DNA of 64,000 nt, from positions 243 through 64,242 of the IMG/VR virus record IMGVR_UViG_3300046779_000589; one strand, given 5' to 3'. This DNA is from a virus. Its lineage: Duplodnaviria; Caudoviricetes. The notes under the pieces are model-generated. The model did no database searches, was not told the origin of the DNA, and saw only the letters and a list, made by a program, of their open reading frames with translations. Position numbers and translations under genes: made by a program. Positions within the stretch are counted from its first letter, which is position 1. Each line of letters opens with the position of its first letter. Positions 28,583 through 35,160 of this stretch are shown here, piece after piece.

Positions 28583-28599
28583 GTTAGCAAATGGCTAAC
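28583..28599. promoter_or_regulatory. GTTAG box overlapping a start codon (GTTAGC-AAATG-GCTAAC)
   Basis: The spacer contains the ATG of 28591..29313. Confidence 0.75.
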
Positions 28600-29313
28600 A
28601 TTTCTCTGGCGAATGGCGCTTCGGGCGCTGCAATCGTGGCTGGTGCTGGGTCGAACCTCGGCGTCTCCGAGGACATGATCGACACGCTCCGCAAGGGCTG
28701 GTCGTCGCATGGCAAGGGCGAGAAATACCTCGCGGCGTTCTTCGATCTGGCGGATGCGCAGGGCTGGGCCGATACGCATTTCATCGCGGTCGGCAAGGAC
28801 GGGTCCACGGCCACAGAAGCGTCTTGGGAACGGTGCAAGCTGATGGTTACATCGGCCATGCCCAAGGGCGTGCAAACGCTTCTGGCAATGCCCGCTGAGG
28901 CGGCGCGGGGCCAAGTCGCGGCGGATTGGGACGGGAACGATTACACCAAATCGGGCCAGCCCAAGGACAAGCGGTATTGGCAGCAGCAGGTCGGGGCGCG
29001 GATCGCCAAGCTGGGTGATCAATGGCGCGAATTGGTGCGGGCGCGTGCCGCGAAAGAAAACTTCCTGCGGCTCAAGGATATGATCGCAGCGGGCGATACG
29101 GACGGGGCGCTGGCTCTCAAGGGCGAGATGGAACGGGCGCAACCGCGCAAGAATCTCCAGCCGTCTGAGTTCTTGGATCAAGCGTTTACCGATACGCTCA
29201 AGCGGATCGAACGGGCCAAGTCGGATGCGATTGATCTGCCCATGCTGCGGGAAGCGGTGCTGCGGTTTAGGGCTGAGGTTCGCAAGCTGGCCAAGGGCCA
29301 AGCGGCGGAATGA
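28591..29313 (+). CDS. First early-arm gene, 240-aa hypothetical protein
   Basis: AAAGG RBS, strong coding bias, followed by a GCAA-loop hairpin. Confidence 0.8.
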   Translation: MANISLANGASGAAIVAGAGSNLGVSEDMIDTLRKGWSSHGKGEKYLAAFFDLADAQGWADTHFIAVGKDGSTATEASWERCKLMVTSAMPKGVQTLLAMPAEAARGQVAADWDGNDYTKSGQPKDKRYWQQQVGARIAKLGDQWRELVRARAAKENFLRLKDMIAAGDTDGALALKGEMERAQPRKNLQPSEFLDQAFTDTLKRIERAKSDAIDLPMLREAVLRFRAEVRKLAKGQAAE

Positions 29314-29367
29314 CAACGGGCGGGGCGGCGCAAGCCGCCCCATCCTTCAACGCAAGCAAGGGATGAG

Positions 29368-29466
29368 ATGATGCGGATTCGGGATTGGTTGGCTGACGCG
29401 CTGGGCGTCGTGATGTTGTTCGGCATCCTCTACGGGGTGTTGTTTCTGGGTGCGGTGTTCGGATGA
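29368..29466 (+). CDS. 32-aa single-TM peptide
   Basis: MMRIRDWLADALGVVMLFGILYGVLFLGAVFG; followed by a terminator. Confidence 0.55.
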   Translation: MMRIRDWLADALGVVMLFGILYGVLFLGAVFG

Positions 29467-29470
29467 GGCA

Positions 29471-29502
29471 AGGGGAAGCGGCGCAAGTCGCTTCCCCTTT
29501 TT
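29471..29502 (+). terminator. Intrinsic terminator
   Basis: AGGGGAAGCGGC-GCAA-GTCGCTTCCCCT followed by TTTT. Confidence 0.85.
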
Positions 29503-29718
29503 AGTTGCGCTGCGGCTTCCCATGCAGCAAGCGGCGCGGCGCGCTATCCCTGCCGGATTCGGCGCGGCCTACGTTTCCGGCTTTCGACGCCAGTTCTCCG
29601 GCGGCAGTATGGTCTTGGCGTCTGCACCTTTTGCCTAACGCTTCTCTACAGGAATGAGACCAGTTCTCTGAGCGGCTGTGCGCCCACGCGCACGGGGCGG
29701 GCGCGGCCATGCAGGCGT

Positions 29719-29735
29719 GTTAGCGGCTGGCTAAC
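29719..29735. promoter_or_regulatory. GTTAG box (GTTAGC-GGCTG-GCTAAC)
   Basis: Abuts repeat cassette 1. Confidence 0.7.
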
Positions 29736-29812
29736 AAAAAACCCGCGCCGGTTGCGCGGGGTGCTGGACGGCTATGACGTAGTCATAGCCGGTTTTCCTT
29801 CTGGTTGTCAAG
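29736..29812 (-). ncRNA. Cassette 1: TTGACA promoter, hairpin and terminator (candidate tiny RNA gene)
   Basis: TTGACA at 29811-29806; hairpin CGGCTATGAC/GTCATAGCCG; terminator stem CCCGCGC/GCGCGGG with T6 on the minus strand. Confidence 0.5.
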
Positions 29813-29859
29813 CGGAAATTTTGCCCGATGCCAGTTCTCGGAGCAGCGGCGCGCCCAAC

Positions 29860-29936
29860 AAAAAACCCGCTCAGGTTGAGCGGGTGGCTTGGCGGCTACA
29901 ACTACGTTGTAGCCGTTTTTCCTTCTGGTTGTCAAG
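29860..29936 (-). ncRNA. Cassette 2: TTGACA promoter, hairpin and terminator (candidate tiny RNA gene)
   Basis: TTGACA at 29935-29930; hairpin CGGCTACAAC/GTTGTAGCCG; terminator stem ACCCGCTCA/TGAGCGGGT with a T-tract. Confidence 0.5.
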
Positions 29937-29954
29937 AACTTTTTTCGGCCAAAT

Positions 29955-30270
29955 GAGAACATCCTAAGTGCTTGATTTCATTATAATGTTCGTGACTTTG
30001 CGGAACAAACCATGAATGTTCGGAGAACATTCCGTCGATGCTCCTCGTAAGTCATTGATATTTGGTAATGTTCGTTCTGTTCGCACGAAAAAAGTATTAT
30101 CCGGGCGCTCGTTCGACCGACGGCAAGATGTTCGGTTTTCCGCACCCGCCAGAAACGCCCAAAAAGAATGACTAATAATAATTCTAAAAAAACATTAGAA
30201 CTTTCTAGGATTTTCAAGCACTTGCCCACACCTCACTGCGAACATTATACGAACATTTATGTTTACTAAC
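29955..30270. repeat. AT-rich region with iterated AATGTTC/GAACATT and an inverted AAGTGCTTGA pair (candidate origin/control region)
   Basis: AATGTTC at 29985, 30015 and 30067; palindrome AATGTTC-GGA-GAACATT at 30015-30031; AAGTGCTTGA at ~29966 with its complement at ~30214; GAAC-N7-GAAC at 30240-30254. Confidence 0.6.
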
Positions 30271-30397
30271 ACTTCACCATTACTCACCACCCCACACCAC
30301 CAAACAACAAACCCCGATAGGCAAAATGGGGCCAAAAACCCCCTGCCTCACAACAACCACTGCAAAATGCGATAGGAATCGACACGTTCTGTAATCA

Positions 30398-30426
30398 TTG
30401 CGCAAGAACTGATAGTTTGCTATACT
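30398..30426 (+). promoter_or_regulatory. Early sigma70 promoter TTGCGC-17-TATACT
   Basis: Exact 17-bp spacer; faces the early genes. Confidence 0.7.
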
Positions 30427-30524
30427 ATATGGACAGTTGGAAATTTAGTCAGTGAGTTGGTTGCCCGTCGGCGGTGCCCGCCCAACTGCGGCCCGCGCTC
30501 TTTTTCATTGTTGTCTCTGTCGTT

Positions 30525-30541
30525 GTTAGCTGGCTGCTAAC
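30525..30541. promoter_or_regulatory. GTTAG box (GTTAGC-TGGCT-GCTAAC)
   Basis: Lies in the early leader. Confidence 0.7.
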
Positions 30542-30629
30542 ACTCGACGCCCGCTAGGGGTGCCACCGTGCTATGCACGGCGCGGCTTGCCGCCCCCGAT
30601 CATGCTAGGGTGATGCAGGTATGTGCAGT

Positions 30630-30762
30630 GACGTTGCCCCAGCAGCGTCAGCTACCGATGATACCGTATGGTATGGCTACCCCCACGTGCCCCAGCACGG
30701 GGGAGGATAGATGCCGGAGACCAAAACCAAAAGGCCCGCTGTTGTGTAGCCCCAGCTACACA
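30630..30762 (+). ncRNA. Three hairpins sharing a GC-CCCA-GC apex
   Basis: GACGTTGC-CCCA-GCAGCGTC (30630-49), CGTGC-CCCA-GCACG (30686-99, extended by CCCC/GGGG), TGTGTAGC-CCCA-GCTACACA (30743-62). Confidence 0.7.
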
Positions 30763-30945
30763 GGAGATTGCGGATCGCAGACTGTGGCTGCGTTAAGCCC
30801 ATAAACTTCCAAGCACGATGACTCGGCTCACATACACCGCGCTGTGAAGCGCCGCGCTGCATACCCAAAGAAAACAGATTGCCAAACCCGCCGAGCGGCA
30901 CAGACGCCGCATGGAACGGGCGAGACAAACTGACGGGCAACAACG

Positions 30946-31028
30946 GTCGAAACCAAGGGGCGGCGCTACGCTATGCTTCGCCCCATTGGTCTGATGCAGA
31001 TGGTTCCTGCATCACTGACGAGACAACC
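30946..31028 (+). ncRNA. Type II hammerhead ribozyme; predicted cleavage after GUC at 30991
   Basis: GAAA at 30949-52; stem III ACCAA-GGGGCGG/TCGCCCC-A-TTGGT; GUC; stem I TGATGCAG/CTGCATCA; CUGACGA at 31015-21; stem II GTC/GAC; pseudoknot loop-I GGUU with 3' AACC. Confidence 0.9.
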
Positions 31029-31056
31029 CACAAACCCACCAAGCCAAGGACCAACC

Positions 31057-31275
31057 ATGACCATTAAGAACAAAATCACCAAGACTTGGGACGGTCGCAT
31101 CGTTGACGACCACAACAACCTTCATGTTGTGGAAGCCTTCAACGACCACGGCACTATGAAGGCCGGAAACACCTACATCATGGAGCGTCACGGGCGCATT
31201 GCCCCAGTGCTTGTCACCTCGACGGTGTGGAACGCGATGCAGAAAGCCTGCGCCGCATACAACTCCAACCGCTAG
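31057..31275 (+). CDS. Early hypothetical protein, first gene after the ribozyme
   Basis: AAGGA RBS; 72 aa. Confidence 0.7.
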   Translation: MTIKNKITKTWDGRIVDDHNNLHVVEAFNDHGTMKAGNTYIMERHGRIAPVLVTSTVWNAMQKACAAYNSNR

Positions 31276-34560: not shown

Positions 34561-35160
34561 ATGACCCGACTGACCAATGATATGCGTGACAGCATCCGCC
34601 GCAACATCATGAAGGGGTTGCCCAACCGCAACTACGAAACCGAGATTTACAACCTGCTGCAAGGCGTGGTCGTGGCGTTCATGGACCCCCGTGTCAAGGC
34701 GGTCTACGAAGATGTCTCGCTGCGTCCGCTGCTGCAGCGCCATGATGTGCGGATCAGCACGGGCAGCAAGAACCTCTACCTCTACAATGCGACCGACCGC
34801 TACATCGTTGGCCTGAACAAGCAGATGGAAATCCGCATTGCCGATTACGACCTGCCCGACCGTGTTCCCGAAGGGTCGATGTATCACCACATCCTGTTCA
34901 AGACCAAACTCGTGGAGTTGGTGCGGGCACACTACGCACAGGACGAGTTGCGTGAGCAGGTGAGCAAGCGCCTCAAGGCCAACCTCGCTGCGGCAACCAC
35001 CATCAAGCGCCTGTTCGAAATCCTCGAACCCGAACTGCACGGCTATATCCCCGTGATCGTAGAGGGCAAGTCCACGCTGCCCGCATGTGTCGCCCCCGTG
35101 GTGGACGACCTCAAGAAGTTGGGCCTTGTCGTGCCGGAAGTGCCGAAGGCGAGTGCGTAA
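34561..35160 (+). CDS. Nmad5-like (nucleotide-modification-associated domain 5) protein
   Basis: N-terminus MTRLTNDMRDSIRRNIM and C-terminal LAAATTIKRLFEILEPEL resemble the family (recall only). Confidence 0.45.
   Translation: MTRLTNDMRDSIRRNIMKGLPNRNYETEIYNLLQGVVVAFMDPRVKAVYEDVSLRPLLQRHDVRISTGSKNLYLYNATDRYIVGLNKQMEIRIADYDLPDRVPEGSMYHHILFKTKLVELVRAHYAQDELREQVSKRLKANLAAATTIKRLFEILEPELHGYIPVIVEGKSTLPACVAPVVDDLKKLGLVVPEVPKASA

Follow-up and report, generated by a model that had tools for sequence, protein, structure and literature searches.

A predicted type II hammerhead ribozyme between a structured leader and the first rightward gene of an uncultivated freshwater phage

Hammerhead ribozymes of type II have been known in phages since 2011 (PMC3088659). 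According to their consensus, loop I pairs with the 3' tail located right after stem II, mostly by at least 4 bp, and stem II may consist of only 2 bp (Perreault et al. 2011, PMC3088659). In polycistronic prophage transcripts hammerheads flank genes; in Agrobacterium tumefaciens, for example, three are arranged around ardA (PMC3088659). In D. vulgaris, cleavage in vivo has been demonstrated for type II hammerheads close to phage-like genes (PMC8782182); what hammerheads do in bacteria and phages was still unproven in a review of 2019 (PMC6765202). Considered here is a DNA stretch of 64,000 nucleotides (hereafter, the window), corresponding to positions 243 to 64,242 of the IMG/VR virus record IMGVR_UViG_3300046779_000589 (Caudoviricetes), which is complete and has a size of 64.2 kb and a G+C content of about 60%. 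Positions 30946-31028 on the plus strand of the window contain an element, including a pseudoknot tail, which, judging by its sequence, is a real and canonical type II hammerhead, that is, a fresh example of an already known ribozyme type. The assignment is supported by the sequence itself, a match to a structural descriptor, an alignment to the Rfam model RF02276 at 27.2 bits and covariation among homologues. In our opinion, the element is probably a functional self-cleaving ribozyme on the sense strand of the rightward, presumed early, gene cluster, where it would cut a leader from the mRNA.

The location of the element resembles that of the A. tumefaciens prophage hammerheads. It stands just upstream of a small phage gene of inconstant identity, and the splitting of a long transcript into pieces differing in stability or translation, proposed for the prophage, can be proposed here as well. 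Unlike the prophage arrangement, one ribozyme is present, and it lies between a non-coding leader and the first cistron. The engineered RiboJ, whose original design is reportedly that of Lou et al. 2012, consists of a hammerhead of satellite-RNA origin to which a 3' hairpin was added. In E. coli it increases the transcript approximately 2-fold and the protein 2- to 10-fold (PMC6206723). The phage element would share with RiboJ, its closest functional analogue, the placement of a hammerhead between the transcription start and the ribosome-binding site, the removal of upstream RNA and a hairpin-capped 5' untranslated region (UTR) with a 5'-OH end, which is an analogy of working and not family membership; in contrast to RiboJ, it is natural, belongs to type II, is pseudoknotted and follows a long conserved leader. 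A position upstream of the ribosome-binding site and ATG was found in four loci, the putative transcription start being a consensus match. The glmS ribozyme, located in the 5' UTRs of Gram-positive bacteria, has a separate fold and depends on a metabolite, and its 5'-OH product is degraded faster by RNase J1. Its likeness to the phage element consists in the self-cleavage of a 5' leader, giving a 5'-OH mRNA whose end decides the fate of this mRNA. Since the glmS product decays faster, the direction of the effect is host-dependent and cannot be assumed for the phage element.

The first-pass annotation of the window had described a complete type II hammerhead at this site, and all its coordinates proved to be correct when read directly from the sequence; the core, the order of the helices and a full-length sub-threshold Rfam alignment bear the description out. 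The 5' strand of stem II, GUC (30946-30948, positions 11.3-11.1), pairs with GAC (31022-31024, positions 10.1-10.3), and these 3 pairs, including the closing pair G10.1-C11.1 (G31022-C30948), never vary among the window and the homologous loci L204, L206 and L200 considered below. The core nucleotides G12 A13 A14 (30949-30951) are the same in all four. The stem III hairpin (30952-30990) has 12 bp, a loop of about 14 nt and a bulged A at 30985 in the minimum free energy (MFE) fold; it begins with the pair A15.1-U16.1 (A30952-U30990), continues with CCAA/UUGG and GGGGCGG/UCGCCCC, includes a G-U pair (30963-30978) and shows double changes at 3 pairs. The GUC triplet (30989-30991) ends with C17 at 30991 and, by core numbering, the predicted cut is 30991/30992. 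The stem I hairpin (30992-31014) consists of 8 bp (30992-30999 with 31007-31014), seven of them with double compensatory changes, and the loop AUGGUUC (31000-31006). It is followed by the core C3 U4 G5 A6 C7 G8 A9, or CUGACGA (31015-31021, G5 being 31017), which is the same in the window, L204 and L206 and has U9 in L200. Thus, every nucleotide of the type II core (C3 U4 G5 A6 N7 G8 A9, G12 A13 A14, A15.1-U16.1 and H17, not G) is present in the window, and the permutation is that of type II, with stems I and III closed by loops and stem II open and 3 bp long according to both the descriptor and the MFE fold.

The 3' tail AACC (31025-31028) is complementary to GGUU (31002-31005) of loop I by 4 bp, which agrees with the activating loop I/tail pseudoknot claimed at first reading and with the criterion of at least 4 bp (PMC3088659). 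The ATG at 31057, placed in that reading 65 nt after the predicted cut, is indeed at this distance.

The structural descriptor, requiring exact CUGANGA, GAAA and UH together with three helices in type II order, matched the window once, at 30946-31028. In 150 dinucleotide-preserving shuffles (19.2 Mb scanned), matches of equal quality were absent and two much looser ones were obtained. A descriptor for all three hammerhead topologies gave no further match over about 810 kb of related phage DNA. The MFE fold of the isolated element is a three-way junction (z = -3.5) common to the window, L204, L206 and L200, and none of 200 shuffles folded equally well. In a fold of 271 nt of context, stems I and III are retained. 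An alternative pairing of 30941-30949 with about 31096-31105, inside the first rightward gene (ORF1), replaces stem II in this longer fold; it was taken as a chance pairing, because the partner is unique to this phage and is made approximately 80 nt later. Masking of the core by the 3' tail was considered too, as the CA-rich tail repeats ACCAA and is a potential competitor for the 3' strand of stem III; this candidate was dropped, the feature not being kept in L206.

The Infernal comparison with RF02276 suggested in the first-pass annotation held in part. When 95 nt were searched alone with the most permissive filters, the full model (1-66 of 66) aligned to 30945-31032 with 27.2 bits and E = 3.8e-4, which is below the curated cut-off of 37 bits, and three larger searches lost the element. 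A scan of the whole window found no Rfam family at the gathering score, a scan of 271 nt with E up to 10 found no hammerhead and a direct RF02276 search of the genome found no match. These three misses are filter losses under default and medium settings. A further scan at the gathering score missed the hammerheads of L204 and L206 as well. In the alignment, a 29-nt stretch stands in the stem III loop, compared with 9 in the model, and one extra base lies beside stem II; much of the shortfall in score is taken to be caused by these two features. By the operational threshold of Rfam the element is not a member of the family; by the structural definition it is a member. It has the 2-3 bp stem II, the loop I/tail pseudoknot of at least 4 bp and the phage or environmental context of RF02276 hammerheads, and matches their consensus in C15.2, the GUC triplet, UG/CA at the base of stem I and UGG in loop I. 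It is unlike them in its 39-nt stem III hairpin and in being a single copy that ends a leader of about 0.5 kb, with no multi-ribozyme array.

A generic type II pattern applied to viral sequences listed at least 117 loci, from which 116 hammerheads were parsed. Among those listed, stem I is typically 6-8 bp (8 bp here), stem II 2-4 bp (3 bp here), the stem III hairpin reaches 48 nt and is at least 35 nt long in 11 (39 nt here), and a pseudoknot of at least 4 bp occurs in 59% (4 bp here). The covariance model R1 was built exclusively from sequences of this lineage, and it picks up 58 further viral type II hammerheads with 23-47 bits; several of them, with Rfam scores of 39-52 bits, exceed the own cut-off of Rfam, so the recognition is reciprocal. 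The filter losses suggest that routine annotation of phages overlooks some of the type II hammerheads having a long insertion in stem III.

Variant contigs were reached via contigs of freshwater and drinking-water runs and then via ORF2 homologues, and represent independent assemblies. Locus L203 is the same phage as the window. In L204 and L205, two NCBI metagenome assemblies, stem III is identical to that of the window and stem I is wholly different, being a 6-bp CACGGG/CCCGUG helix with a new loop that contains UGAUC; a 4-nt insertion GAUC in the L204 tail restores a 5-bp pseudoknot, UGAUC/GAUCA. L206, a Logan contig, has C-G in place of U-A at pair 1.1-2.1 and G-U in place of A-U at pair 1.3-2.3 of stem I, G-C in place of A-U at pair 15.4-16.4 of stem III, and a stem III hairpin lengthened to 69 nt. 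L204 and L206 retain all 13 single-stranded nucleotides of the core.

A fourth, more distant relative was found by R1 (27.6 bits) in the ENA locus L200, at L200:3291-3351. It combines a GUC/GAC stem II, a 16-nt stem III capped by UUCG, a distinct stem I with one mismatch and a 4-bp GGCU/AGCC pseudoknot. This copy lies about 0.8 kb downstream of the ORF1 homologue of L200, starts on the last base of the upstream stop codon and is followed by the next gene 19 nt downstream. Extending from a stop codon to the next ribosome-binding site, it is intercistronic.

Pairs were counted on four non-redundant sequences aligned with the model (the window, L204, L206 and L200). Standard pairs are formed in 96.4% of the cells, compared with 33-52% after displacement of the 3' partners by 1-3 columns. 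Double compensatory changes were found at 10 of the 23 pairs, namely at 7 of the 8 pairs of stem I and at 3 pairs of stem III, and stem II is invariant. None of 500 shuffles matched the observed value on any covariation measure. A plain MAFFT alignment, in which a gap is misplaced in stem I of L204, still gives 90% of pairs, against 34-51% when slid. Changes in loop I are matched by changes in the tail, the pairing segments being GGUU/AACC (window), UGAUC/GAUCA (L204) and GGCU/AGCC (L200). Conservation of the core and covariation of the stems in homologues, set beforehand as a test of the ribozyme, were thereby borne out in L204, L206 and, with U9, in L200. A fixed core with compensating stems and pseudoknot indicates continuing purifying selection on what would be the active fold.

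The ribozyme belongs to a region of unusual length for a phage. Codon-position G+C showed that 28591-29313 (plus strand) is coding and that 29314-31056 has no frame signal, which gives a non-coding gap of 1.74 kb with an AT-rich core at about 29.9-30.4 kb; this gap may serve as an origin, have a regulatory function or encode a long non-coding RNA. The ribozyme and its flanking genes share the plus strand. No gene was called in the 1,151 nt upstream of ORF1 in L203, and in ribozyme-free relatives the equivalent place is likewise taken up by about 1 kb free of genes. A minus-strand ORF of 82 aa at 29981-30229 had no match in a protein search and is probably not a gene.

The structured non-coding leader is placed at 30433-30945 (plus strand), where codon periodicity is absent; its 5' limit is presumed. 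The 3' part, 30651-30945 (about 300 nt), is conserved in L204 and L206. Two hairpins in it, 30680-30706 and 30739-30766, have a fixed CCCCAG-type loop and show 4-5 compensatory double changes each among the window, L204 and L206; they have the appearance of recurring sites of RNA recognition. A third leader hairpin was noted earlier near 30638. An Rfam E-value scan of 29300-30950 gave chance-level matches only.

A candidate promoter, TTGCGC-17-TATACT with a TG extension (TGCTATACT), was read from the sequence at 30398-30426 (plus strand) as a consensus match; three of six positions match in its -35 box, and the promoter scanner did not list it. In L204 and L206, the hammerhead is preceded at a distance of 440-520 nt by extended -10 promoter-like sites on the plus strand, which are likewise consensus matches. 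The putative transcription start, and hence the figure of about 560 nt for the upstream RNA, depends on the candidate promoter alone. Strong terminator-like hairpins are dense on both strands at 29394-29917 (11 found vs. about 2.4 expected from shuffles), those on the plus strand including 29470-29499, 29769-29791 and 29891-29917. Therefore, transcription of the ribozyme probably begins inside the gap. The scanner found no plus-strand terminator between the leader and ORF1.

Downstream of the ribozyme there is a short 5' UTR (31029-31056, plus strand) with the ribosome-binding site AAGGA (31046-31050), nearly identical in the window and L204. ORF1 (31057-31275, plus strand; 72 aa), called as gene P0001, is the first rightward gene and behaves as an exchangeable cassette. 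Its place is occupied by an unrelated gene family of 84/85 aa in L204 and L206 and by another gene in L200. Save for two 4-nt insertions in L204, the sequence is common to the window and L204 over the 5' UTR and the ribosome-binding site as far as ATGACCAT and diverges completely beyond it. Conversely, the contigs with ORF1 homologues, L199-L202 (62-80% identity), resemble the window from 31054 onwards, a position immediately ahead of the ATG, and no hammerhead was found directly upstream of these homologues. L199 thus has ORF1 without the leader, and L204 has the leader, ribozyme and UTR to ATGACCAT without ORF1, the mosaic junctions (31054-31064 in the window and its equivalents in L199 and L204) falling precisely on the codon with which the first rightward gene starts. 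As the leader, ribozyme and 5' UTR are conserved and the ORF is swapped at ATGACCAT, the ribozyme is tied to the leader and UTR and not to ORF1. The distance from the ribozyme end to the next start codon is 23-46 nt in all four loci. Contigs of independent freshwater and drinking-water runs suggest that diverged strains also keep the region of the leader and the ribozyme and differ in sequence after approximately 31042-31064. Loose ends of runs X3 and X10 match the gene of L204, and no stem I difference is among those listed for X10, whereas X3 may have differences beyond those listed; recombinant haplotypes probably exist, as these ends indicate. The runs listed as containing the phage include no RNA run, a result that is neutral as to expression.

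Outside these loci the element was sought widely. The nearest IMG/VR relatives, with 73-79% identity of the terminase, keep synteny, but lack a hammerhead and any similarity at the DNA level across 28-33 kb. In 80 syntenic relatives collected by terminase and in L199-L202, the descriptor found no canonical hammerhead of types I-III; the A9U copy of L200 was detected by R1. The loci L207-L229, obtained via ORF2 homologues, had no hammerhead by the descriptor or R1. No match to the region was given by blastn against 50,697 GenBank phages, and lineage-specific hammerhead patterns had no matches in viral contigs or in JGI metagenome contigs. A search of IMG/VR with ORF1 found no relative. Nine syntenic relatives contained no Rfam ribozyme at the gathering score, and only Mu-gpT-DE RNAs were found elsewhere in them. 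On these searches, the element is confined to one small lineage of uncultivated freshwater phages.

The sequence comparisons establish the anatomy of the element, its non-randomness, the conserved core, the covariation of stems and pseudoknot and the linkage with leader and UTR; the following course of transcription, cleavage between leader and mRNA and effects on RNA stability and translation is proposed. Transcription would start from a promoter about 0.5 kb upstream, the ribozyme probably being the last element of a long structured leader. During transcription, stems I and III would fold as local hairpins and the 3-bp stem II would shut the junction, the pseudoknot of loop I with the 3' tail keeping stems I and II parallel. 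Cleavage after C30991 would part the leader from the mRNA. The leader would then end with the 12-bp stem III hairpin and one nucleotide bearing a 2',3'-cyclic phosphate, and the mRNA would begin with a 5'-OH flush on the 8-bp stem I hairpin, upstream of the ATG by the distance given above; owing to the type II topology, both new ends would be capped by hairpins. The likely outcome is a defined, leader-independent 5' UTR, poorly open to 5'-end-dependent decay.

Decay dependent on RNase E and RppH favours single-stranded 5'-monophosphate ends, and 5'-terminal hairpins stabilise mRNAs of E. coli. Because of this preference of RNase E, a hairpin-capped 5'-OH mRNA should resist 5'-end-dependent decay. 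The stabilisation against RNase E put forward in the first-pass annotation is an inference, and its direction would depend on the host. Given the conserved structured leader, it is equally plausible that the released upstream RNA is the product that matters.

Several points weigh against a functional ribozyme of this kind. The promoter is a weak consensus match, and with the terminators upstream, transcription hinges on it. The RF02276 score is under the curated cut-off and default filters lose the element. The covariation rests on four sequences, and the alignment used for counting was fitted to the structure by the model. The core of L200 is CUGAUGU, with U in place of A9, and its activity may be weakened; this copy may be a tolerated core variant or a decaying one. 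The pseudoknot of L206 has just 3 bp. Most relatives with the same layout have no hammerhead, hence the element is dispensable for this phage group and is not its general feature. Finally, if the host has RNase J, decay can be accelerated by a 5'-OH end, as for the glmS product in Bacillus.

The explanation that survives best beside cleavage for the sake of the mRNA overlaps with it and differs in which product matters. The main job of the ribozyme would be to form the 3' end of a structured upstream RNA of about 0.5 kb, freed as a stable non-coding RNA, and trimming of the mRNA would be a by-product. We regard this as possible, with a probability clearly under one half. It fits the joint retention of the hammerhead and the 3' part of the leader despite exchange of the ORF downstream, the lack of coding signal in this leader and its hairpins with fixed loops and compensated stems; moreover, as no plus-strand terminator was found before ORF1, self-cleavage would be the sole end-forming device. 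It is weakened by the replacement, in L204, of the 5' half of the presumed RNA with its presumed promoter (30332-30595), by the gene-free gap that ribozyme-free relatives keep and by the failure of the leader to match a known RNA family, and the conservation of the 5' UTR from the ribozyme to the ATG indicates that the mRNA side matters too.

A combination of both functions may also be suggested, tentatively and at about the same low level of confidence. The conserved leader, hammerhead and 5' UTR would form one expression module, which frees an early RNA of about 0.5 kb with CCCCAG-loop hairpins and supplies a hairpin-capped 5'-OH mRNA to any cassette recombined at the start codon, that is, a natural two-product insulator with a dedicated non-coding RNA partner. 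The freed RNA, ending in a hairpin with a cyclic phosphate, could in such a module be a protein-binding, titrating or antitermination RNA.

It is improbable, in our estimate, that the element is selfish or a relic, such as what is left of a small mobile module, RNA or DNA, spreading in phages, which may cleave and brings the phage no benefit. Its sporadic distribution (absence from about 100 related loci), the location at a mosaic junction, the related copy of L200 at a different intergenic position and the replacement of the whole stem I with loop I in L204, suggesting recombination between hammerheads, would agree with such an origin. Purifying selection, seen as an invariant core with compensating stems and pseudoknot, argues against it, as do the matching of the loop I swap in L204 by an insertion in the tail and the constant placement before a start codon in four contexts.

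The reading as a chance consensus match in GC-rich inverted repeats, or as a DNA-level element (an origin or a protein-binding palindrome) with no ribozyme activity, can draw on the score below the Rfam threshold and on the 1.74-kb non-coding region with its AT-rich core, many hairpins and possible origin, and is nevertheless highly improbable, as the 19.2 Mb of shuffles contained no comparable match, the core of L204 and L206 is unchanged while paired positions vary with compensation, the stems contain G-U pairs (30963-30978 in the window, 1.3-2.3 in L206), and a covarying pseudoknot is expected of RNA and not of a DNA palindrome.

With self-cleavage between leader and mRNA as the preferred reading, the locus, having one ribozyme, one leader and a conserved 5' UTR, is a clean test case for the role of phage hammerheads. 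Natural variants with another downstream gene, stem I or pseudoknot partner provide matched controls for distinguishing stabilisation or insulation of the mRNA from maturation of the upstream RNA.

Some minor observations concern other parts of these genomes. Exact cluster look-ups with ten small ORFs of the window returned no record, probably because other start codons are used in the called genes. Mu-gpT-DE RNA (RF03012) was found above the cut-off downstream of the terminase region in three of the syntenic relatives, at L065:17735-17787, L043:14164-14216 and L075:17243-17293 and was not reported in the scan of the window. The terminase at L224:1-482 has 828 aa, its gene running off the locus, compared with about 517 aa in its kin, and shows weak matches to intein/Hint domains, which suggests an intein-containing terminase. 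In the rightward cluster of the window, a protein of 199 aa (34561-35160) matches Nmad5 (PF18757, nucleotide modification-associated) with 28.4 bits, just above the cut-off.

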